Of a DNA stretch of 64,000 nucleotides, positions 30,354 to 44,335 are shown piece after piece (the stretch's first letter is position 1; each line of letters starts with the position of its first letter). The translations under genes were made by a program, and so were the position numbers. The notes under the pieces were generated by a model. That model worked only from the letters and a program-made list of their open reading frames with translations, had not been told where the DNA came from and ran no database searches. Source of the stretch: Myxococcota bacterium (lineage in GTDB: Bacteria; Myxococcota_A; Polyangia; Polyangiales; Houyiibacteriaceae); the NCBI GenBank assembly GCA_039030515.1, contig JBCCEA010000005.1, forward strand, positions 64,001-128,000, read 5' to 3'.

Positions 30354-30611
30354 TGCCGCTACGATGACCGTATCCCGGCCCTGAATCATCGCCTGCAGAC
30401 GGAGCGCTTTCGGGATTTGCGATCAAGAAGTGCGGGTGGCGCATGTCGAATCGGGCACGGGTGGATGCGCAAGGGTGCGACAACAAGCCGCCCCTCGACG
30501 GGTACCGATTTAAGGTGGGTATGGTAGTCGTCTCTGGATGAGAGAGATTCTTGCAAACCGTAATATCGATTCTTTGAGTGCATCTCGCCGCAGACCGTAT
30601 CGGGACTACGG

Positions 30612-30677
30612 TGAACGGGTAGGCAGAGATGAACGGGTAGGCAGAGATGAACGGGTAGGCAGAGATGAACGGGTAGG
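30612..30677. repeat. 18-bp tandem repeat (TGAACGGGTAGGCAGAGA) x3.6
   Basis: Three exact copies plus one partial copy. Confidence 0.95.
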
Positions 30678-30699
30678 TAGATTGCGTAGACAGGAACCG

Positions 30700-31674
30700 G
30701 TGCGGTGGTTTGACCCACAGTCTATTCGCCCACGGTCCGCCCTCGTGACCCAACTGGTACTGCTCCTCTCATCGGCGAGCTTGGTCGCCTGCGGAGACGA
30801 CAGCAGCAGCACGACATCCCTAGCTCTGGAGTTCCGTGCAAGCGACGGGGTGAACCCCGTGACCTGTGAAGAGGGTTTTGATGTGGCCGGAGAGGGCACA
30901 GGCTCGTTCAACGTGGGCGTCAGCGACATCCGCTTTTACGTCAGCAACTTGAGAGCTTTTGACTCAAGCGGCACTGAGCTCTCTCTTGAACTCGACGAAA
31001 ACGAGTTTCAGTACAGTGGACCCTCAGGTTGGGTCGGGCTCATCGACCTGACGAGCAACAGTGCGGGAGATTGCTCGCCAGAGGCGATCGCTTTTGCGGA
31101 GGGAACAGGCAGAACGAACACCGAAATCACCGGCATCGCGGGTGGTGAAGTGGATCGAATCACCTTTGACGTCGGCGTGCCCCAGGCGGTGATGCGCGAG
31201 ACGATCGCCGATTTCACTGCGGAAGGCGCCCCTTCACCTCTGAATGAAATGCACTGGTCCTGGGCAAGCGCCCACCGACATTTCGTATTCAACTTCACCG
31301 TCGAAACTCAGGGCGGAGAAACAGGAGACGGCTATGTGCACGTGGGCAGCCGTGACTGCGGAGGCGACGGGGCACGCGCGTTGACCGATCGAGAAGCGTG
31401 CGGGCTTTTGTATACGCCTTCGGTTGACTTGACCGGTTACGACCCGGCGCAGGTGATCGATGTCAACCTAGCACGACTCCTCGAAGGCCTGGATTTCGTT
31501 GCGCCGGTCTACGACCCGACCACGTTTGAGATCATCGGCGAGGGACCTGGAGTGGAATGCCATTCAGCCCCGGCAACGCAACCTCACTGCAACCTGCTCT
31601 TTGGCGCGTTGGGCGTCGATCCTTCAGGCGGCCTGTCTGACGCTGATTTGAATGAGGTCTTTTCGCTGCAGTGA
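30700..31674 (+). CDS. MbnP-family copper-binding lipoprotein
   Basis: Lipobox LVAC, DIRFYVSN, MHWSW (WxW motif), HVGSRDC; lies directly upstream of an MbnH-like gene. Confidence 0.85.
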   Translation: MRWFDPQSIRPRSALVTQLVLLLSSASLVACGDDSSSTTSLALEFRASDGVNPVTCEEGFDVAGEGTGSFNVGVSDIRFYVSNLRAFDSSGTELSLELDENEFQYSGPSGWVGLIDLTSNSAGDCSPEAIAFAEGTGRTNTEITGIAGGEVDRITFDVGVPQAVMRETIADFTAEGAPSPLNEMHWSWASAHRHFVFNFTVETQGGETGDGYVHVGSRDCGGDGARALTDREACGLLYTPSVDLTGYDPAQVIDVNLARLLEGLDFVAPVYDPTTFEIIGEGPGVECHSAPATQPHCNLLFGALGVDPSGGLSDADLNEVFSLQ

Positions 31675-31718
31675 GCGCGCTTTAATATACCTTCGATAGG
31701 GAAAGCTTGAACTACCCG

Positions 31719-33377
31719 ATGATCGCAAAGCGACCTGCACAGTCAGGCCTTCACATCACGCTGCAGTATACCTTTGTATTCGCGCTGTTGTGCACGGGGC
31801 TCGGGTGCGTCGCGGACAGCTCCGAGCGTGCGCCGCTGACGAGAGAGGAACTGAGGCGGCTACTTGGAGTGCCCGATCACTTCCTGCTCCCGGCGATTCC
31901 CGAGTTCAACCCTCCCACCGCAGAGAAGATCGAGCTGGGCAGGCATTTGTTTTTCGACCCGGCCCTATCCGGCAACGGCACTCAGTCGTGCGCCAGCTGT
32001 CATGATCCCGCCCACGCATTTGCGGATGGCCTGGTGCGCCCCGTAGGCTCCACGGGACAAAGTCTCCTCAGAAACAGTCAGGGTCTTGCCAACGTCGCTT
32101 ACTCCGCATCGCTCACCTGGGCAAACAAGGACCTGCACACTCTGGAAGCACAGATTCGGGTGCCGCTCACCAGCGATATGCCGGTCGAGCTTGGCCTGAC
32201 CGACGGAGTGCGAGCGGAGGTTGTTGCGAGATTCGACGCCGATCCCGACTACCAACGCCTCTTTGAGCGCGCGTTCCCGAGATCGGAGCCCGGTGCCACC
32301 CTCAACAAGGTGATCTTGGCGCTGGCCGATTTTCTACGCACCATGGTCAGCGGCGCCAGCGCCTACGATCGCTATCTCAACGGCGATCCGGACGCGCTCA
32401 GCGAGCGTCAAATCGAGGGGCTTCGGCTGTTCAACGGGGAGAAGTTCGAATGCCACCACTGTCACGGCGGGATCAACTTCACCACCTCTTATGCTGACGA
32501 ACGCCTTGACGAGAGCACGTCGATCAATCCGTTCTTCAACAACGGTCTGTACAACGTGGACGGCACCGGAGGCTATCCGCAGGGCAATCAGGGCCTTTAC
32601 GACCTCACGTTTGATCCCGATCATCGAGGTCTTTTTCGACCCCCGGGGCTTCGCAATGTGGAGCGGACTGCTCCCTACATGCACGACGGTTCGATCTCCA
32701 CGCTGCGTGGAGTGGTCGCGCACTACGTGGCCGGTGGACGCCATATCGAGGAGGGTGCGTTTGCGGGAGATGGCCGGATCAGCCCTCTGAAATCTGGATT
32801 GATTCGGCCCATCGATGCGACAGAGGAGGAGATTACTTCGCTGGTCGCATTTCTCACGGCGCTTACCGACGAGCACTTCATCACGAGCCCACAACTCCAA
32901 AATCCTTTTGAGTGTGTGGACGGTAGCTGCCTCGGACAGGGCAAGGATGCGCCGGCACCGGATGCATCACCTTCTTTGCCGCTCGGGCCGGAGGACGCGT
33001 TTGCACAAGAGGGCTGCGAAGCCTTTGATGCGGCGGAGCCCCCGACTCTTGAGGCCGCCAGCGCGATCGACGAAGCACCATCGGTCGCGCTAGCATTGCG
33101 ACAGGTTCAGCAAGTTCAGGTAGAGAACGAGGGCTTTGTGACCCTCCGCATCGATCGAGCGCACCACGACTGGGCGCTTTTTTCAGACGAAGACCTTACG
33201 ATTCAGTCTCCTGACGGTCTGTTCACGGTTCACTACCTTGCCGGCGCCTGCCCCGAGCAGCGTATCGTCGATCGTCGCGCCCACATTCACGACGAGGGCG
33301 ACTACCTGCTGATCTTGCGAGGCAGCGGTACGTTTCGAGTGTTCACGACCCACAACGCCTCCGACCACGCCGGGTAG
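31719..33377 (+). CDS. MbnH-family di-heme enzyme (bCcP/MauG superfamily) with extra C-terminal domain
   Basis: LGRHLFFD, CASCH, CHHCH, PYMHDGS, GGRHI...SPLKS; about 155 extra residues after LQNPF. Confidence 0.9.
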   Translation: MIAKRPAQSGLHITLQYTFVFALLCTGLGCVADSSERAPLTREELRRLLGVPDHFLLPAIPEFNPPTAEKIELGRHLFFDPALSGNGTQSCASCHDPAHAFADGLVRPVGSTGQSLLRNSQGLANVAYSASLTWANKDLHTLEAQIRVPLTSDMPVELGLTDGVRAEVVARFDADPDYQRLFERAFPRSEPGATLNKVILALADFLRTMVSGASAYDRYLNGDPDALSERQIEGLRLFNGEKFECHHCHGGINFTTSYADERLDESTSINPFFNNGLYNVDGTGGYPQGNQGLYDLTFDPDHRGLFRPPGLRNVERTAPYMHDGSISTLRGVVAHYVAGGRHIEEGAFAGDGRISPLKSGLIRPIDATEEEITSLVAFLTALTDEHFITSPQLQNPFECVDGSCLGQGKDAPAPDASPSLPLGPEDAFAQEGCEAFDAAEPPTLEAASAIDEAPSVALALRQVQQVQVENEGFVTLRIDRAHHDWALFSDEDLTIQSPDGLFTVHYLAGACPEQRIVDRRAHIHDEGDYLLILRGSGTFRVFTTHNASDHAG

Positions 33378-35525: not shown

Positions 35526-36692
35526 ATGGCATTCGCGGAGACTCTCCCGATGACCTTACCCCACGGTTGGGAGGAGATTGTTTTTGGAGCCATGTGGGAA
35601 TGCGCTGCTCCCACGGATGTTGCCGCGCAGCTCGCTTCCGTTTCACGCGCCGGACGTACCATCCATGGCCCCAATGCACGCGACTTGCGAGCTGCCGCAA
35701 AAGCCGCTGCCGACGCCCGAACATTCTTGGAAAGTCGTGATCGCCCCATAACCCATCTGGCATTTCTGCCGGGCCCCGACGGTGGTCGATTGATTTGGGT
35801 AAAAAAGACACCAAACGGAGTTCTCTTGGGCATCGACGATCGGAACATCAACCATCGGGTCATCTTGAGTGAACCCGGCCTAGTAGAGAACAAACCGCTC
35901 ATCGCGAGTGAAGACGGCTCTCTTTTTGCATTAACCATGATCGATGGTCTTCACGTGTTCGACCGTGATGGGAGAGCTCTCGGCGCAGTGGGGCCAGCCC
36001 CGAACACGATTCAGGACTACGCTCTCTCCTCATCTGCCGGTGTCCTTCTCATAGTCACAAGTCCGGTTCCGATCGGTATCGCACTGCAGCCGACCACCCT
36101 ACACGCGTACGATCTGGCGACACTTCAGCCAATCTGGACCCGCGCCGGATTCCACCCCTTTGCGCGCATCGCTCTTTTCAAATCCGGTACCCACCTAGCG
36201 GTAAGCCGCGACACCCAAGTTCGAGTCTTCCAGTTACGCAGCGATCGCTCCTTGTCGGAACATCCGGCGATCAAACTTGGAAGACTCCACTCGCCTTCGG
36301 GCCCCCACAACTACCTGGTGGATTTGAAGTGTTCCGCTGGCCCATCTGGGCGACCCATCGTCGCCGCGCTCTCTTCGACGGGAACACTTAGGCTCTACAC
36401 ATCACGGTCCAGGAGATCGCCTAGAAGTTGGGGACGCCTCAGAAAGCATCGGTATCAAGGGCCCCTTGCCCAGTGGAACCTCTTCGTCGAGGGCAGCCTA
36501 GCGTTTTCTCCAAACGGGAGATTTCTGGGCATCAACCAAGTAGATAAAGAGAGGATTTTCGACCTTAACGCAGGCCGTTGGGTCCGAGACGAGACGCGTG
36601 TAGGTCAAGTGTTCACGACGCTGTCCGATCGAGCTGCCTGGACGGTGAGTCATGAGGAACCTTGGAACGTTGCTCGGTGGCCACTTCCGTGA
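35526..36692 (+). CDS. Hypothetical beta-propeller (WD40-like) protein with possible F-box-like N-terminus
   Basis: SEDGS, AFSPNGRFL, LHAYDL repeats; paralogous to 43151-44335. Confidence 0.65.
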   Translation: MAFAETLPMTLPHGWEEIVFGAMWECAAPTDVAAQLASVSRAGRTIHGPNARDLRAAAKAAADARTFLESRDRPITHLAFLPGPDGGRLIWVKKTPNGVLLGIDDRNINHRVILSEPGLVENKPLIASEDGSLFALTMIDGLHVFDRDGRALGAVGPAPNTIQDYALSSSAGVLLIVTSPVPIGIALQPTTLHAYDLATLQPIWTRAGFHPFARIALFKSGTHLAVSRDTQVRVFQLRSDRSLSEHPAIKLGRLHSPSGPHNYLVDLKCSAGPSGRPIVAALSSTGTLRLYTSRSRRSPRSWGRLRKHRYQGPLAQWNLFVEGSLAFSPNGRFLGINQVDKERIFDLNAGRWVRDETRVGQVFTTLSDRAAWTVSHEEPWNVARWPLP

Positions 36693-36807
36693 CTATGTAC
36701 GAAGCCCCGGCACTCCATGCTCCAGCGGATGTAGAGTAGACCGCTGACGCAGTCCGAACCGGAATTTCTCGAGAGGCACAGCAGCGCAGAAGAGATCCAG
36801 GATCGCC

Positions 36808-36836
36808 TTGACACGCGAGCAGCCTACGGTTACGTG
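36808..36836 (+). promoter_or_regulatory. Native sigma70-type tRNA promoter, now upstream of the truncated tRNA copy
   Basis: TTGACA-17 nt-TACGTG, 10 nt before the tRNA 5' end. Confidence 0.75.
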
Positions 36837-36842
36837 AGCCTT

Positions 36843-36886
<44 letters not shown>

Positions 36887-37047
36887 ACAGCGCTCCCACT
36901 GAAACCCAGAGAAAGCGCTGAGAACTTCGGGGTTTACCCGTTTCCGGCTGTTGCATGCCGTCCCGGGGTGTCCCAGCGAAAGTGAGGACTCAGGTGGGGC
37001 CTTCCGCTCCCTTAACTGCACGACGTGAACTCGTGTTGGGCTGGCTT

Positions 37048-37743
37048 TCAGGTCATCCTAGCGAAGTCGTCAGCAAGCAATGATAGAACTTGCTCGCCTA
37101 GGGCAGCAGCCGTTGAGAAAGTCGCAGGAATATCCCCGGTTGCAGCTCCCGCCACTACCTCCTCCGGGCGGTAACGCACGCAGTTTCCCACCTCACTCTC
37201 GACCGCGGCTACGTGCTCGCATGACGCCTTGGGGTCACTTCGTAGAGCCTCGACGATCTTTTCTTGCCACGCGGTGTCGTCGTATCGAGACGGCCAGCTA
37301 TCCATTTCCAGGAGCCTCACGCCGATGCCACCCGTCAAAGCCAAAACAAACGTTGCGCAGGTCAAGCCAACTTCCCCCTCGCCCAGAAGGAGCTTCCCGT
37401 CAGACTTGTCGAACGAAGTCTGGCAGTGCTTCAGCGCGTAGGGGATTTCACTGGTCGAATGCCTGTCTACGACCAGTCGGCAAAATGCTGCGACGCTACG
37501 CGATATCGGTGAGGGAACTGGCAGATCTGCCAGTCGCATCCACTTCGCGTCTGGTTCCAACGCATCATCTCTCAGTCGGCGGTGGAAGGCGAGATGGACG
37601 ACTCGAACGGAATTCAAGGCGCCGGTCCTGTAGGCAAGGCCGACGTGCTGTTGCTCTCCATCGGTCGTGCATATCGCGACGGCGACGTGGTTCCCGTCGG
37701 TCAGTATGGGACGCTCAATCTTGCGGACGGCGTGAATTCCCAT
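37048..37743 (-). CDS. Hypothetical protein, permuted papain-like (NlpC/P60) motif order
   Basis: HVGLAY...HLAFH...IPYA...GLTCATFV, with His before Cys. Confidence 0.7.
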   Translation of the reverse strand: MGIHAVRKIERPILTDGNHVAVAICTTDGEQQHVGLAYRTGALNSVRVVHLAFHRRLRDDALEPDAKWMRLADLPVPSPISRSVAAFCRLVVDRHSTSEIPYALKHCQTSFDKSDGKLLLGEGEVGLTCATFVLALTGGIGVRLLEMDSWPSRYDDTAWQEKIVEALRSDPKASCEHVAAVESEVGNCVRYRPEEVVAGAATGDIPATFSTAAALGEQVLSLLADDFARMT

Positions 37744-37764
37744 TGGTCCGTCGCTCGTTCGGCA

Positions 37765-38205
37765 CTAGCCAAGATGGCGCATGGTCTCGTCAGCGGCATC
37801 AGCGCCGACGGCGCCGACCAAGCGAGTTCTCAGCCGTGTCAGCAGGCTCCCGTAAGCTTCCGTACCGCTCATCGTACGAGCGATCATCATCAAGCCGACC
37901 GTGGTATCGGTATCGACGCGCTCCACAGGCCACCAGTGCAAAAGGAGCCCGAGTGTGTCGGTGCGTTCTGCATGTAGGAGGCTGTCGCAAAGCAGGAATA
38001 GCATGTCTAGTGCAGCGTCGATTTCGCCACTGCTGTCAAGTGCGCATATCCTGTCGACCGTAAGCCACGGAAAGCCCGTCGATGTTTCTTCTTGATGGAG
38101 GTAGACCTCATGAATCGCGCTGTCTAGGCGCTGTCCGGCTTGGCTAGACAGTCTCGGACGCCGCAGCAACGGAGTCACGCTCTTAGAAGTAGCGACTGAT
38201 GTCAT
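37765..38205 (-). CDS. Hypothetical helical protein, middle gene of the cargo operon
   Basis: ATGA overlap with the upstream gene, 21 nt gap to the downstream gene. Confidence 0.7.
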   Translation of the reverse strand: MTSVATSKSVTPLLRRPRLSSQAGQRLDSAIHEVYLHQEETSTGFPWLTVDRICALDSSGEIDAALDMLFLLCDSLLHAERTDTLGLLLHWWPVERVDTDTTVGLMMIARTMSGTEAYGSLLTRLRTRLVGAVGADAADETMRHLG

Positions 38206-38924
38206 TGGTAGCGCCTCCATAGTTCTTCTTTGACGATTGCGTAGAACACCTTGTTCTTGACGGAGCGGTGTTGCTCCAGCCGGTCCCACACTTCATCCGA
38301 ATGTGCGTCAAGTTCATTTTGAATGAATACGTCGATATCTAGAACCACTGATGCAGAAGTGTCCTCGGGTTTCACAGGCTGTACCAGCATAGTCACGATA
38401 CAGGAGGAGCCCTCGCTCTCAAAAGGGATTACCGAGCGTACCAGGAGCTCCGACATACTTGCCGGGAGGGCTGCGGGAGTCCTGACCTCGAGAGCGAAGA
38501 AGTGCCCAAGGTCACCGATGGGAAGCTCCAGGTCCATCCTGTTCACGTAGCGGACAGCTGTTCGAACCACTCGTTTTGGGCTGGCCGCAGTTCGATACAC
38601 GTTCCAGAGCCCACGAGCCTTGTCCCGCAGCTCCTGCCAGGACTCGTATCCGTTTATCCGGCTTATCGAGAACCCATTGGGTCGTGTCTGAGCCGCCCAA
38701 TGATCCGCCGAATCGCGGAATTCGAAACCATTGGATCGTCGACCCACATTTGTTTCGTCGGATGCCAGCCCTACACGAAGCTCCTGCATCGGCCGAACTT
38801 TCGGGAAGGTTTGGCCGAGCTGAGATTTCAGGGCTTCAAGCGAGGTCGAATCGACGGTAGGTTCGACTCGGATATCCAGAAGAGCTTCCACGATGGGAGC
38901 GCGCGACAGGTGTGGTATATCCAC
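38202..38924 (-). CDS. TIGR04255-family protein
   Basis: N-terminal APIVEALLDIR, YESW, VRYVNR, VLDID, C-terminal KNKVF pattern. Confidence 0.85.
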   Translation of the reverse strand: MDIPHLSRAPIVEALLDIRVEPTVDSTSLEALKSQLGQTFPKVRPMQELRVGLASDETNVGRRSNGFEFRDSADHWAAQTRPNGFSISRINGYESWQELRDKARGLWNVYRTAASPKRVVRTAVRYVNRMDLELPIGDLGHFFALEVRTPAALPASMSELLVRSVIPFESEGSSCIVTMLVQPVKPEDTSASVVLDIDVFIQNELDAHSDEVWDRLEQHRSVKNKVFYAIVKEELWRRYQ

Positions 38925-39272
38925 CCCACGAAATTATCACTGAAAGCTCGGATCGTCGAGAGATCACTGCTGATCTCCCTCATGAGCACTCGTCCTCGGC
39001 CGGCGCCCCTCAGGCATGGCCGAACGGTGTGGCTTCACTTGAACAAGCCGCCGATTGGCAGAGCCTCTGGCGCTGTCATGCCATCCAAGGTGCTCTTCGG
39101 GTTGGCAGGTCGCGTCGCCCGGCATTGCTCTAGGATTAGGGCATCCTACTGGGAAGCGGCCTCCGACGATCAACGACGTCTCTGATCGTCGGAAGCCACT
39201 CTTGAAGCGCTCGTTCCCGGTTGCTCCTTTAGCTTGGTCGTCTCGGCCATTGCGGTCACCATGGATCACAGA

Positions 39273-39770
39273 ATGTCACGATCTTCATCCAAGCTAACCG
39301 AGGCTCAGCGACTGGCTCTCATGTCTCTTCTTGGGGGTTCGTCGTCGACCGAAGCGGCAGAGGTTGCCGGAGTAGCTCGTGAAACGGTGTCCCGTTGGCG
39401 TAGCCGGAATCCCGACTTCATTGCGGAATACAACGACCGACGGGCTGCCGCATGGGAGTCTGGAATGGCTAACCTGCACGCCCTGCTTGATAAGGCGACC
39501 TCAGCGTTGGGAGACCTGCTTGGGAACTACGACACTCCAGCCAGCATCCGGCTCCAGGCGGCCTCCCTAGTGTTGAAGACGCTGAGAGTTCCCGAACTTG
39601 CACGAGCACCAGACGTCGATGCGCCCCGCACTTCTCGAGCCGTCTCAGATGCCATGGCAGCGGAGGACCGGCGGCAGGCTCGTGTTGGTCATGAGGATGC
39701 GCTCATTGAAGACGCGCTACGAGATCTGGAAAAAGTGCTGTCTGAGAATCTCAAGAAAACCGCTGTTTAG
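39273..39770 (+). CDS. Helix-turn-helix protein of the type found in phage satellites and small elements
   Basis: LTEAQRLAL...EAAEVAGVARETVSRW...PDF...IRLQAA. Confidence 0.75.
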   Translation: MSRSSSKLTEAQRLALMSLLGGSSSTEAAEVAGVARETVSRWRSRNPDFIAEYNDRRAAAWESGMANLHALLDKATSALGDLLGNYDTPASIRLQAASLVLKTLRVPELARAPDVDAPRTSRAVSDAMAAEDRRQARVGHEDALIEDALRDLEKVLSENLKKTAV

Positions 39771-40088
39771 AAGGTTTTCCGTTTTTACGGCAAAATTATT
39801 TTCGATCGACTTGCTTCAAATTGGCCAATAACTAGATGTGAAGCCAGACGACCCCCGGGGCCTCGGCCGAAGACAAGTCCTGCCCTCCGCCCCCGCCCGC
39901 AGATCGGCACCCATGAAGACCCGAGCTACGAGGCTTGGTTCCTTACCGGCCGCAGTGCGAGATATGAGGGGGAAAGTCGGCCCCCCCCCAACGCGCGCGC
40001 TTTAGGGCGCAGCCGAAGGTCGGTAGGCCTGAGGGCTACGCCCCCACAGCATGAAAAACTAGGGTTTCGAACTCTGGCCCGACGAACA

Positions 40089-41102
40089 GTGTCCAGCTTC
40101 GTCGACGCCATCAAGCTCGCGGGTGAGCCATCTGGAGAACGCTTCTCCATCACGCTCACGGTCAGGCCGCCTTTCGACTGCTCGCTCGTCGTTCTCGCTC
40201 CGAAGATTCGCGGTTTTCTGAGGGCGCTGGATGGCAACTCAACCAGCGCGGTCCTGGCGCCTGACCGGCGGCCGAGCAACGGAGCGTGGCATGCCCATGG
40301 GGTGATCTGGGTAGGAGAGGCGATGACGCTCGGTATGGTGCGTCACCAGTGGCGTTCTCTGTTTCATCCGGGGAGGAAGCCAAACCGCCGTCACGGCGTG
40401 TTCCTCGATGAAAATCCTAGTCTTTGGAGCGCGATGGTTCATTCCTGGAGCTTCTCCCGTGCTGGAAGATTCCACGTTCCTCCCCTGGAAAAGCGGACGT
40501 TCGCCACGACCAGTCTTCAGCCGATAGTCGAGCGTGTTTGGGAAGCGCCTCAGCTTCGTCCCCAACTCACCTCCGGACATATCACCCAGCGCCGGCTCCC
40601 TCGAACCGACTACGGATGCGAAGCGCGACGACGTCGTGGTCCGAAATGTTCCTGGTGTGGCACGTCGCTGAAGGCCGAGACCCGTCGCTGGTTGACGAAA
40701 GTCGGCCGTGGAGAGCCACCTCGATTCTGCGGCAAGGATGATCGACGGGAGCGCAACCGGGCCATCAAACATGCAACCGGTTCGTTGACCGGTGAACAGG
40801 TGGCCTGGCTGAGAGCTTACGTCGCAGCGAGGGAGCTAGGTCGACCCGGAGGGAGTCACACGTCACCCAATCGGACTCCATATCTGACCCGCGATGTTAT
40901 TCGAAGCGGTCGAATCTGGTTGGACTTCTATGAGGGTGCGGCCTTGCCCGAAGCTAGGGAGACTCCCCTGGCGGCCAATAGCTGGCGATGTGCCTGGTGC
41001 CGCTTTGTATCTTCGGAGGCTTCCTCTGCCGAATCGGAGGGGCAACTACTGCCGAGATTCAGCGCGGCTCAGGGGTCTGTCACGCCGATTGACTCGGTTT
41101 GA
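40089..41102 (+). CDS. HUH-endonuclease (rolling-circle Rep)-like protein with C-terminal Cys cluster
   Basis: Motif 1-like ITLTV, motif 2 WHAHGVI; CSWCG...RFCG; no clear catalytic YxxK. Confidence 0.5.
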   Translation: MSSFVDAIKLAGEPSGERFSITLTVRPPFDCSLVVLAPKIRGFLRALDGNSTSAVLAPDRRPSNGAWHAHGVIWVGEAMTLGMVRHQWRSLFHPGRKPNRRHGVFLDENPSLWSAMVHSWSFSRAGRFHVPPLEKRTFATTSLQPIVERVWEAPQLRPQLTSGHITQRRLPRTDYGCEARRRRGPKCSWCGTSLKAETRRWLTKVGRGEPPRFCGKDDRRERNRAIKHATGSLTGEQVAWLRAYVAARELGRPGGSHTSPNRTPYLTRDVIRSGRIWLDFYEGAALPEARETPLAANSWRCAWCRFVSSEASSAESEGQLLPRFSAAQGSVTPIDSV

Positions 41103-41333
41103 TACGCCAGCTGGATTGCCGCAACGCCTACAAGAGGTCTGGCGATGGCATCACGACCACGCCCTGAAACGTGGGCAGGTAGATCCTATTGTTTGCGCCT
41201 GGGAGGGTCTTGCCCGAAATGTGAGAAAGTCAGGCCAACCCGGCGAAAGAGAATTACTGCAGCGGCACTCGCGTGCTCCCGGCTCGCATGTTGATGGGGA
41301 TAGCTGGGTACCAGAGGGAAGCTTGCAAGCCTG

Positions 41334-41825
41334 ATGAGCCAAGAAAGCTCATCGCTACAGTGGCTGTCGCTTCGCGACGCTGCGGCCTACGTCGGATTCA
41401 CGCCGTCTGGGCTACGGACCGTGCTTTATCGCGGTGAGCTGCGGTCGGATGGCCGAGGCGCCGGCAACACACACCTTTTCCGTCGGGAGATCTTGGACTC
41501 ATGGGTCGTTCGAAGAGCCGAGCGCTACGCTTCTCGGCAGCATGCAACAGCCGGGGTTGGAGATGAAGATGCGCAAGAAATCGACGCGCACGAAGTACCC
41601 CGGTGTGAAGAAGATCGCGCCAGGTCGCTTCCGAGTTCGCGCGAAGTTGAAGGATCCTCGCACCGGTCGATTCGTGGAAATCGATCGGGAGATCGAAGCA
41701 GGAAGCGTGCGGGACGCGTCCCTCGTCCGCGAGGAACTCCGTCAGGAGATCCTCGACGTCGGCGCGCTCCTGAATCCTCAGCGGGTGACCGTTGGGGAAT
41801 ACGCGAAGCGATGGGCCTCGCGTAA
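41334..41825 (+). CDS. Excisionase-like winged HTH protein overlapping the integrase
   Basis: WLSLRDAAAYVG...GEL...FRREILDSW in the first 60 aa. Confidence 0.75.
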   Translation: MSQESSSLQWLSLRDAAAYVGFTPSGLRTVLYRGELRSDGRGAGNTHLFRREILDSWVVRRAERYASRQHATAGVGDEDAQEIDAHEVPRCEEDRARSLPSSREVEGSSHRSIRGNRSGDRSRKRAGRVPRPRGTPSGDPRRRRAPESSAGDRWGIREAMGLA

Positions 41826-42753
41826 GTCCCCCGAGCTGAAGCCGTCCACCCGGGTCCGCTACAAGGACGCCCTCGAACACATCTGCGACCACCTCGGTCA
41901 CGTCTACCTCGACCGTCTCACCGTCGACGACATCGTCGAATGGCGGGATCGTCAGAAGCTCGCCCCGTCGACCGTCAACGGGCGCCTTCGGGTCCTCAGG
42001 ACGATGATGAAGGCGGCAACACACGAGCTTTGCCTCGCACGGAATCCCGCCGAGTACGTCGGGGCGATCCGCGACCCGAAGGACACCGACGACAACGTTC
42101 TGAGCGCGAGCGAGCTGGCCGACGTGCTCGCTTTCGTCGAGAGTGAACGCCCGCACTGGTATCCCTTCTTCCTCACTGCGGCAGTCACCGGCGCACGCTT
42201 TGGGGAACTCTCCGCGCTTCAATGGTCGGACATCGATCACGAGCGGCGCCAGATCCACATTCGACGCGCTCAGGTGCGTGGCCACGTCGGAGACACGAAG
42301 ACCGGCGAGCGTCGCAATGTCCCGATGCCGGAGCAGCTGTCCGAGGCGCTACGAAGCCATCGCCGGCGGCTGGTGGCGGAACAGGCTCCAGGCCTTGCCG
42401 TCGGATGGGTCTTCCCCAGCCGGACCGGCGGCCTGATGTACAACTCATCGCCGTCGAGGGCCCTGAGAGCGGCTTTGAGGCAGTGCGAAATCAGCAGGCC
42501 TTTCACCTTTCACGGATTCAGGCACGCTTTCAACGATTTGACTCGTCGAGAAGTGTCGGGAAAGGTCGTTCGATCTATCACCGGTCACGTCACCGAAAAG
42601 ATGACGGAGCACTACTCCCACGTGGATTTCGAGGAGAAACGACTGGCGGTGAATGCCGTCATCGGCCTGATCGACCGGAGTTGGGAGACAAAAAGTTGGG
42701 ACGCAGGTGGGGACGCCTGCGATCCCCTTGACACCCCCGCCCGCAATAGCTAG
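41569..42753 (+). CDS. Tyrosine recombinase/integrase
   Basis: TGARFGEL (R), TKTG (K), HGFRH (HxxR), TGH, EHYSH (Y); GGAG RBS before ATG 41569. Confidence 0.96.
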   Translation: MRKKSTRTKYPGVKKIAPGRFRVRAKLKDPRTGRFVEIDREIEAGSVRDASLVREELRQEILDVGALLNPQRVTVGEYAKRWASRKSPELKPSTRVRYKDALEHICDHLGHVYLDRLTVDDIVEWRDRQKLAPSTVNGRLRVLRTMMKAATHELCLARNPAEYVGAIRDPKDTDDNVLSASELADVLAFVESERPHWYPFFLTAAVTGARFGELSALQWSDIDHERRQIHIRRAQVRGHVGDTKTGERRNVPMPEQLSEALRSHRRRLVAEQAPGLAVGWVFPSRTGGLMYNSSPSRALRAALRQCEISRPFTFHGFRHAFNDLTRREVSGKVVRSITGHVTEKMTEHYSHVDFEEKRLAVNAVIGLIDRSWETKSWDAGGDACDPLDTPARNS

Positions 42754-42756
42754 GTG
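42728..42756 (+). promoter_or_regulatory. Element-borne replacement promoter for tRNA-Gly
   Basis: TTGACA-17 nt-TAGGTG, 12 nt before the tRNA; overlaps the last integrase codons. Confidence 0.75.
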
Positions 42757-42768
42757 TTTCGACCTCTT

Positions 42769-42844
<76 letters not shown>

Positions 42845-43150: not shown

Positions 43151-44335
43151 TTGAAATCCTTCTCGGCGATGCCGCAAGTTTCGCGAGGACTGCATAACGC
43201 ATACAGCGAAATAGCGACGGAGAACCGTGCCAAGCGTAACGATTACGCTGTCGAGGCAGCCAACGCAGCTGCGCTCGCCAAGTTTCGGTTAAGGACCGGA
43301 AACTGCAGCATCAAGGGGTTGGCGTTTGCCGGGGGAACGAGCCGCCCGGGCCATGGGCAGTTGATTCAAGTGAACGCCGCTGACGAGCAAACAAGCATCT
43401 TGCGTTTTGGCGACAAGGTCGTTCGAGTTGGAAGCATCCCAGGCAAGCCGATCGCGGTCAGCGAAGACGGCTCCCATATCGCTTTAGCAATCGACGACCA
43501 TATCTGCGTTTTCGACCCTTGGAGTCGCATTTTGGGGAGCGTACCGAGACGGGGCGCGAGGGTCCTCTCGATCGCCGTTTCTGTACATGCTGGATTGCTT
43601 CTTGTCTTAGACCAGGGCTTCGTACCGCCGGGCGGCACCGGCGTACTGCAAACATCTACGCTCCGAGCCTATGATCTCCAAAGGCATACGTTTCTTTGGA
43701 GATGCCCCAACCTGCATCCAAGTGCGCTCGTATCATGTTCGCCATGCGGGACTATGCTAGCGCTGAGCCGTGGCGATCGGATCGACTTGTGTTCACTTCA
43801 CAAAACTCTTGGTCCCGCAAAGCACACTACCCTGGGCTGCGGAGGGCTTGGCTTCTTTCCTAAACGCAAAGCAACGCAAATCGCAAATCTGTCGTTTTCA
43901 TCACACCGCGTGCACGGACTCATCTTGGCCGCACTCTTGTCAACTGGAGAAGTACAGCTTTGGAAACAAAGACGCTTTCCAGCGCCTCTTCGATTTCAGA
44001 AACTTGGAAGCGTTCGAGGTTGGTCAGGAGGCGGGGCATCGCTGGTCAGGTCACGGCAGCCGCGCGAAGGCTCTCTGATGTGGTCACCAGGAGGGCGATA
44101 CCTCGCGGTCAGTAGTGACTGCGATCCAAGCCAGAAAAGGCCTAGGCTGTGCGTTCTGGACCTCGATAACAATATCTGGAGAGATACTGAGTTGTCTCCT
44201 GCAGACAGCGGAATCTTGGCGATCTCAGACACCGAAGTGTTTACCGCCGACCGCCGTAGTCCCTGCAGCATCACCCGGAAGAAACTCCAACCAAATGCTG
44301 CATCGAGTCGGACAGCCCAGCCCGTTCAATCTTGA
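43151..44335 (+). CDS. Hypothetical beta-propeller protein, paralog of 35526-36692 (5' end possibly frameshifted)
   Basis: KPIAVSEDGS, LQTSTLRAYDL, EGSLMWSPGGRYL align with the paralog; a GGAGG-preceded ATG at 43078 is out of frame. Confidence 0.65.
   Translation: MKSFSAMPQVSRGLHNAYSEIATENRAKRNDYAVEAANAAALAKFRLRTGNCSIKGLAFAGGTSRPGHGQLIQVNAADEQTSILRFGDKVVRVGSIPGKPIAVSEDGSHIALAIDDHICVFDPWSRILGSVPRRGARVLSIAVSVHAGLLLVLDQGFVPPGGTGVLQTSTLRAYDLQRHTFLWRCPNLHPSALVSCSPCGTMLALSRGDRIDLCSLHKTLGPAKHTTLGCGGLGFFPKRKATQIANLSFSSHRVHGLILAALLSTGEVQLWKQRRFPAPLRFQKLGSVRGWSGGGASLVRSRQPREGSLMWSPGGRYLAVSSDCDPSQKRPRLCVLDLDNNIWRDTELSPADSGILAISDTEVFTADRRSPCSITRKKLQPNAASSRTAQPVQS

Follow-up and report, generated by a model that had tools for sequence, protein, structure and literature searches.

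The cassette described here is real, widely mobile and apparently undescribed: no named system in PADLOC 2.0 and no paper in the literature searched matched it. It was identified in the window, which is the whole stretch of 64,000 nucleotides that was analysed, and contains a TIGR04255 gene (gene 1), a gene for a helical protein (gene 2) and a gene for a predicted cysteine enzyme (gene 3). The fixed unit is genes 2 and 3, not the triad, and this unit recurs across many bacterial phyla behind a first slot that is exchangeable between front-gene families. Our favoured reading, with a probability of about 0.5, is an abortive-infection-type anti-phage module composed of an effector, a restraint and a swappable sensor.

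The cassette and its integrated element

Genes 1 (240 aa), 2 (146 aa) and 3 (231 aa) are three coupled minus-strand ORFs. The ORFs of genes 1 and 2 overlap by ATGA, and the length of gene 2 was counted from the ATG there; the spacing between genes 2 and 3 is 21 nt. These ORF coordinates agree with the tight operon described in the sequence-only reading. The cassette and its element have the following features.

37048..37743, minus strand: gene 3, a 231-aa predicted circularly permuted NlpC/P60 (papain-like) cysteine enzyme and candidate effector (AlphaFold model, structural matches, conservation)
37765..38205, minus strand: gene 2, a short variable N-terminal tail and a helical domain of about 105 aa, candidate restraint or adaptor (alignment, locus survey)
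38202..38924, minus strand: gene 1, TIGR04255 family, in the first, exchangeable slot (NCBIfam score, model, locus survey)
36843..36886, plus strand: left att repeat, 4 nt and the 5' 40 nt of tRNA-Gly(GCC) (exact repeat)
39234..39770, plus strand: backbone HTH protein, weakly like the Sf6 small terminase (Pfam, E 1e-4, below cut-off)
40089..41102, plus strand: backbone ORF, a probable replication initiator judging by its HUH-type motif (motif reading; no Pfam match at 0.01)
41334..41825, plus strand: backbone HTH_17 excisionase-like ORF (Pfam, E 0.002, below cut-off)
41563..42753, plus strand: tyrosine integrase, in an ORF open from 41434 with its likely start at ATG 41563
42765..42843, plus strand: right att repeat (42765-42808), continuing into the intact tRNA-Gly(GCC) at 42769-42843 (exact repeat)

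The ends of the element are an exact 44-bp repeat (36843-36886 and 42765-42808) that represents the 5' half of tRNA-Gly(GCC). The two copies are 5922 bp apart, giving a 5.9-kb element in tRNA-Gly in which no capsid genes were found. Because the four backbone genes all lie on the plus strand, the triad on the opposite strand is the sole cargo, as the sequence-only reading had proposed. No promoter or terminator signals above chance were detected.

The region 36951-42794 was found as a single contig at about the depth of its flanks in one public run, which may be the source sample. The DNA was present in marine metagenome runs, all from one study, and there were no RNA datasets among the matches listed. 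Judged by the kinship of the genomes searched, the host is a member of the Polyangiales (Myxococcota): one genome of the same order encodes a gene 3 protein identical to that of a Polyangiaceae record. No excision joint was seen in contigs, which drop rare forms. A search of 30 relatives recovered no more of the element than the tRNA and short stretches of the integrase.

Gene 3 is a predicted permuted NlpC/P60 cysteine enzyme

No sequence match to gene 3 was found in Pfam (E 0.05), NCBIfam, PADLOC or the PDB, and 189 proteins were found in the protein collection, its own record included. An AlphaFold model built from 118 sequences reached a pLDDT of 94. When this model was compared with 48,161 chains, the top seven structural matches were all permuted NlpC/P60 folds. 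The best was YiiX (Z 9.9, rmsd 3.6, 154 residues aligned), followed by TseH (Z 7.2), BcPPNE (7.2), RID (5.4), Aichivirus 2A (5.2), PLAAT4 (5.0) and DeSI (4.5); unrelated rows had Z values of at most 2.6, with one exception at 4.3. A Foldseek search of the model against the PDB and a viral library returned nothing significant. For the YaeF/YiiX family (PF05708, C92) there was no Pfam match at E 0.05, and the Atlas TM of 0.53 was under the bar.

The predicted catalytic set, assigned by conservation and spacing, consists of His33, His50 as the polar third residue, Tyr102 and Cys129. Among 106 non-redundant relatives, Cys129 was conserved in 106, His33 in 105 and Tyr102 in 102, and position 50 was H, D, E or N in 103. 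The His-before-Cys motifs that had been read from the letters are therefore borne out. According to the available part of PMC3142127, this set agrees with the four catalytic residues of BcPPNE and YiiX, and the 27 residues between Tyr102 and Cys129 equal the distance from Tyr127 to Cys154 in BcPPNE. With the YiiX match and the pLDDT, the conserved residues uphold the earlier assignment to permuted NlpC/P60: gene 3 is predicted from its model to adopt a permuted papain-like fold in which the catalytic set is complete. No hydrophobic stretch was present in its first 40 residues, consistent with the earlier statement that it has no signal peptide; this was a hydropathy check, and no signal-peptide predictor was used.

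Gene 3 has its predicted fold in common with YiiX (2if6), BcPPNE (3kw0), TseH (6v98), PLAAT4 and DeSI, together with the order and spacing of the His, polar residue, Tyr and Cys in the part of PMC3142127 that was accessible. However, its identity to these enzymes is 8-17%, with no Pfam or PDB sequence match, and it is set apart by its own conserved motifs, W150-x-x-R-x-x-D and R190-x-R-P-E, and by an obligate helical partner. In the same source, as far as available, BcPPNE/YiiX-type enzymes are proposed to hydrolyse fatty-acyl amide bonds, and their S1 pockets are described as hydrophobic. By analogy with YiiX and PLAAT, gene 3 would most likely act on a fatty-acyl amide or ester bond, by hydrolysis or by transfer.

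In the literature searched, which left most subscription papers outside its coverage, no permuted NlpC/P60 anti-phage effector was found, and none of YiiX, BcPPNE, TseH, PLAAT4 and DeSI was described as one. Cytoplasmic toxicity of such an enzyme is therefore without precedent there. The main text of the DefensePredictor preprint likewise makes no mention of papain, NlpC, cysteine, peptidase, protease or amidase. As a separate observation, one gene 3 homologue (P0109) is fused to a ParA-type ATPase domain.

Genes 2 and 3 form the fixed unit

The gene 2 domain is helical, about 105 aa long, and belongs to no Pfam or PDB family; none of genes 1-3 had a PDB sequence match. The alignment shows no invariant residue in the domain, which argues against catalysis. 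The rest of gene 2 is an N-terminal tail, which is short in the window copy (about 44 aa). Behind front genes of the TIGR04255 (T), X, Y and Z families, the tail is poorly conserved, 26-213 aa long, and richer in Ser, Thr and Pro and poorer in Leu than the domain.

Loci were pooled from GTDB, metagenome, viral and annotated records, giving 166 with a long gene 3 match. At below 90% identity, 143 were non-redundant, and 128 of these had at least 450 nt upstream. The gene directly upstream of gene 3 ended in the gene 2 domain in 126 of the 128. In the GTDB set the figure was 62 of 64; the two misses were a copy that begins at a contig edge and a gene 3 fragment on a short contig. In 106 of 106 loci the domain ended no more than 9 residues from the C-terminus, and the median distance from the gene 2 stop to the start of the gene 3 match was 10 nt. 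Because the gene 2 profile had been built on the 64 GTDB loci, independent loci were tested as well.

In 401 genomes of the phylum, gene 3 gave 25 matches in 24 genomes and the gene 2 domain 27 matches in 26 genomes. The two were adjacent for 23 of the 25 gene 3 matches and 23 of the 27 gene 2 matches. The remaining two gene 3 copies had weaker gene 2 matches; of the remaining four gene 2 matches, three were weak and lay in long ORFs, and one was without gene 3. Furthermore, the pairwise identities of gene 2 and gene 3 were correlated (rho 0.53, permutation maximum 0.19). With the gene 2 domain before gene 3 in 126 of 128 loci, the 2-3 gene order is far beyond chance.

Gene 3 was absent or broken beside an intact gene 2 at four loci (L099, L060, L088 and L089), where the broken copies may be assembly errors, and the reverse, gene 3 without a detectable gene 2, was found at one (L222). 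This asymmetry is a weak supporting sign for an effector-restraint design. A search for long proteins with the gene 2 domain found nothing, and this search was weak because such fusions exist in the loci. In other TIGR04255 operons, the HEAT-like second genes gave no match to the gene 2 profile.

The first slot is exchangeable

The first slot was surveyed at 106 loci with at least 1400 nt upstream and a gene 2 domain. It was occupied by a TIGR04255-like gene in 35 loci, the window included, and by families X, Z and Y in 16, 13 and 8, with two of the Y/Z calls weak. The others were long fusions (11), ParA/KGGVGR ATPases (4), ABC ATPases (3), family D (4) and other genes (12). Of 55 upstream proteins of the GTDB set that were run against NCBIfam, 21 were confirmed as TIGR04255. 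On a quick gene 3 tree, in which 17 of 103 branches were well supported, the slot label changed 30 times (minimum 8, shuffled mean 65). The three-gene system that the sequence-only reading expected to co-occur elsewhere was thus recovered for genes 2 and 3 (126/128 loci) and not for TIGR04255, which is not a fixed part (35/106).

Family X is prokaryotic COMMD-like and matches PDB 9q6a (E 1.5e-24, 204 of 227 profile positions). Such proteins (PDB 9q6a; PMC13392464) are the first-slot family in 16 of 106 loci, but gene 1 of the window belongs to TIGR04255. The available text of PMC13392464 (2026) describes rings of 8 or 10 members and calls their function unknown; its main text does not mention defence, phage, papain or operon. 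The COMMD-like first-slot genes are mostly from Planctomycetota (L002:4615-5295, L003, L007, L009, L015, L024, L036, L037 and metagenome loci).

At 11 of the 106 loci, the gene 2 domain was fused to restriction enzymes or HTH-IrrE proteins. It stands at the C-terminal end of a restriction subunit of type III (L035), of an MmeI-type enzyme (L053), of the reading frame that follows a type IIG gene (L019) and of HTH+Peptidase_M78 proteins. A further cassette copy stands behind a MAD3 ATPase (L020).

Several first-slot arrangements were observed besides. A Myxococcota clade (L033, L047, L054, L056, L077, L078, L083, L086 and L090) carries HTH-Peptidase_M78 (IrrE/ImmA-like) proteins with a C-terminal gene 2 domain directly before gene 3. 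At L011, L028 and L062, a protein of about 1470 aa, with a SIR2-like domain in one and TPRs in another, and a KGGVGR ParA-type ATPase precede genes 2 and 3. Family D is a small first-slot family without a Pfam match (L052:5089-5454, L071, L074 and L182), and presumably resembles DUF3467. Families Y and Z looked TIGR04255-like by eye, but this link was unsupported at a profile-profile probability below 1%, and both families were left unassigned.

In a different interpretation, genes 3 and 2 would be a secreted effector and its immunity protein, resembling the TseH/TsiH pair of type VI secretion, and gene 1 would serve as an adaptor for loading. Among the fold matches TseH ranks second (Z 7.2), the Atlas neighbours of gene 3 include PAAR-fused permuted papains (TM below 0.5), and Myxococcota COMMD-like genes lie near T6SS-like genes according to the part of PMC13392464 available. 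We consider this highly improbable: across the 64 loci no family of secretion genes was seen repeatedly, none of the phage and plasmid records inspected shows T6SS genes, with the tiny plasmids carrying no secretion genes, and the putative immunity domain, which is encoded ahead of the enzyme, also occurs fused to DNA enzymes of the cytoplasm.

TIGR04255 as a front gene of other cassettes

Gene 1 scored 105.6 bits against the TIGR04255 model (cut-off 30), in line with its earlier family assignment. Its model (pLDDT 89) resembles tandem TBP-like alpha/beta repeats, with a Foldseek E of 4.5e-5 at TM 0.35 and a VIA Z of 7.5 that is within background. Neither the top 50 VIA rows nor the Foldseek rows listed contained SecB, an absence that does not exclude it. 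A catalytic role of GS/guanido-kinase type for TIGR04255 was considered and set aside, the McsB match (Z 7.2) being at background level. No literature on TIGR04255 was found, within a search that left most subscription papers outside its coverage.

The 401 genomes contained 74 TIGR04255 copies in 59 genomes. The survey of what follows TIGR04255, suggested with the sequence-only reading, placed the gene 2+3 pair behind 12 of the 74 copies and other cassettes behind 62. Downstream genes were scanned at 26 of the 30 best TIGR04255 loci. At 11 loci the second gene matched an HTH and at 3 it matched HEAT repeats, in most cases behind a variable N-terminal tail, and the third gene matched PIN in 2, HEPN in 1 and HNH in 1. 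TIGR04255 therefore serves generally as the front gene of three-gene cassettes, whose second and third genes can be exchanged. A third slot that generally holds a toxin rests on these four loci, because the third gene is uncharacterised in 18 of the 30 best loci.

The commonest TIGR04255 cassette in the phylum, which accounts for these 18 of the 30 best loci, consists of TIGR04255 followed by a tail-HTH protein and a protein of about 260 aa (noted at L117-L131, L136, L137, L139 and L142). This uncharacterised third protein has WRQG...TQTCD motifs and no Pfam match, and the cassette is a second candidate system. At L129, L133, L138 and L144, TIGR04255 is followed by a tail-HEAT or other protein and by small proteins that look ADP-ribosyltransferase-like by eye and have no Pfam match.

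Defence and mobile-element context

PADLOC neighbours were scanned at 36 of the 39 long loci (E 1e-25, 222 proteins; one locus in part), and generic matches (Ser/Thr kinases, ABC/UvrA-type proteins, FtsK, cysteine desulfurase and sigma-54 activators) were set aside by judgement. As a control, the same pipeline was run on 33 randomly chosen windows of 12.6 kb in four genomes of the phylum (222 proteins); these were counted permissively and not taxon-matched. Defence neighbours were found at 16 of the 36 cassette loci and in 3 of the 33 random windows (Fisher p 0.001, which overstates the difference because kin are not independent). They include type I, IIG and III restriction, DISARM, Druantia-like genes, DpdA, Uzume and HEC/MADS ATPases. 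The other 20 loci had no PADLOC neighbour, and some cassettes lie among housekeeping genes (gyrB, ftsK).

Seven records of P2-like Burkholderia phages match gene 3. In the one inspected for position, the triad lies between the replication/integrase genes and portal Q, beside a toxin-antitoxin pair; in the available part of PMC9122126, this position is an anti-phage hotspot of E. coli P2-like phages. On a 6.6-kb Psychrobacter plasmid, no cargo other than the cassette is annotated; the cassette is also present on a 6.9-kb Acinetobacter johnsonii plasmid, and a Rhizobium plasmid carries it next to multi-ubiquitin/ThiF and PfkB/QueC genes. Versions of it also come from the Psychrobacter plasmid pA46P4, from Marinobacter and from Pseudomonas mandelii. 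The defence and mobile-element setting that the sequence-only reading had assumed was thus found. Its expectation of no full match to a named defence system also stood: in PADLOC-DB 2.0, genes 2 and 3 had no match at E 0.1, and gene 1 matched only LmuB (E 0.033 over 44 residues).

The occurrence on small plasmids, prophages and an integrative element, the patchy distribution (24 of 401 genomes of the phylum) and the decay asymmetry, which fits any toxin-antitoxin pair, would also be expected of a toxin-antitoxin module for addiction or stress, one that stabilises mobile elements and plays no part against phages. We regard this as unlikely, as the enrichment near restriction, DISARM, Druantia and similar genes, the restriction-enzyme fusions and the P2 hotspot position favour defence.

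In the main rival to the favoured reading, gene 3 would encode an enzyme that is not toxic and serves in processing or de-modification (an isopeptidase, deacylase or protease; DeSI-like), and the gene 2 domain would be a docking tag recruiting it to any defence protein that carries or binds the tag. This would fit a domain found on the C-termini of unrelated defence proteins and conserved in the position of its C-terminal end, the DeSI fold match (Z 4.5), the copy beside the multi-ubiquitin/ThiF cluster and the ParA-type fusion of P0109. However, the cassette stands alone, with no obvious client, on small plasmids and in the window element, known nucleases fill the third slot in other TIGR04255 operons, and the conserved unit has no ligase. 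We hold this rival to be somewhat doubtful.

Proposed mechanism and comparison with known systems

In the proposed effector-restraint-sensor module, gene 3 would be a thiol enzyme that is toxic when free, and the helical domain of gene 2 would bind it and keep it silent. The product of the front gene may act as a sensor or as a stabiliser of gene 2; this protein, TIGR04255 here and a COMMD-like ring elsewhere, would bind the variable Ser/Thr/Pro-rich tail of gene 2. At fusion loci, the fused enzyme itself would carry the gene 2 domain. A phage protein that displaces the tail, or that attacks the fused restriction enzyme, would then free the enzyme. The 2-3 contact, the toxicity of gene 3, the front protein-tail binding and the phage-triggered release are all presumed steps, as would be any toxin, antitoxin and chaperone roles of the cassette genes. 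The sensor/chaperone-antitoxin-effector triad first suggested from the sequence keeps its predicted thiol enzyme, a co-occurring partner and a defence context, and loses TIGR04255 as a fixed part.

By analogy, the cassette may work like a TAC system and like restriction-tied guard systems. The TAC systems HigBAC and CmdTAC (10.1101/2024.02.24.581848, as far as that source was available) are likewise three small coupled genes on mobile elements; in both cases the middle protein has a folded domain and a variable, likely disordered tail, and the third component is a plausible tail-binding sensor. The same source, in its available part, defines the TAC antitoxin by a disordered chaperone-addiction segment at the C-terminus, whereas the tail of the cassette is N-terminal and the folded domain ends gene 2 in 106 of 106 loci. 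The gene order is reversed, and the TAC effector is an RNase or ADP-ribosyltransferase in what was available, in contrast to a predicted cysteine enzyme. Gene 1 had no SecB match among the rows listed and its model resembles a TBP-like tandem fold, with a COMMD-like ring in other copies, and, unlike in TAC, the first gene can be replaced by a fusion to a restriction enzyme. The position of the tail and the unmatched SecB are why the cassette was not filed as TAC. Of the TAC-like logic with a thiol-enzyme effector proposed earlier, the predicted cysteine enzyme was retained, and the N-terminal tail and reversed order depart from TAC.

Among guard systems, PrrC-EcoprrI is one that we take to be an abortive system coupled to a restriction enzyme. 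PARIS, a guard-type abortive system in the available part of PMC9122126, resembles the cassette as an effector module appended to restriction/ABC-ATPase genes and found in the P2 hotspot. Both differ from the cassette in effector chemistry and in that the cassette couples through a new helical domain; the window genes, furthermore, have no PADLOC match.

Tentatively, the cassette could represent a new modular immunity class, in which many sensors (TBP-like TIGR04255, COMMD-like rings, ParA/ABC ATPases, restriction enzymes and IrrE-type proteases) would share a single cysteine-enzyme effector and a single helical restraint domain. If true, this would give a first function to TIGR04255 and to the bacterial COMMD relatives, as tail-binding immune sensors, and a first anti-phage role to the PLAAT/YiiX enzyme fold. 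The cassette is a small, clonable candidate immune system with a putative effector chemistry absent from the defence literature searched. Prokaryotic COMMD-like rings gain a place in a defence-associated operon, in a slot whose genes are interchangeable, so that their function can be tested directly by swaps, and TIGR04255 emerges as a general front gene of three-gene cassettes.

Other features of the window

The element duplicates the 5' half of tRNA-Gly and not the 3' half (36801-36886 and 42721-42843). A TTGACA hexamer lies about 35 nt upstream of both repeat copies, which suggests that the restored tRNA receives its promoter from the element. Two paralogous proteins of about 390 aa flank the element and tRNA, one on each side (35526-36692 and 43151-44335); they share 29% identity (E 1e-23) and have no Pfam match. 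At 30538-33377, an MbnP-like protein and an MbnH di-haem enzyme form a copper-handling pair upstream of a FIST/NosP gene.
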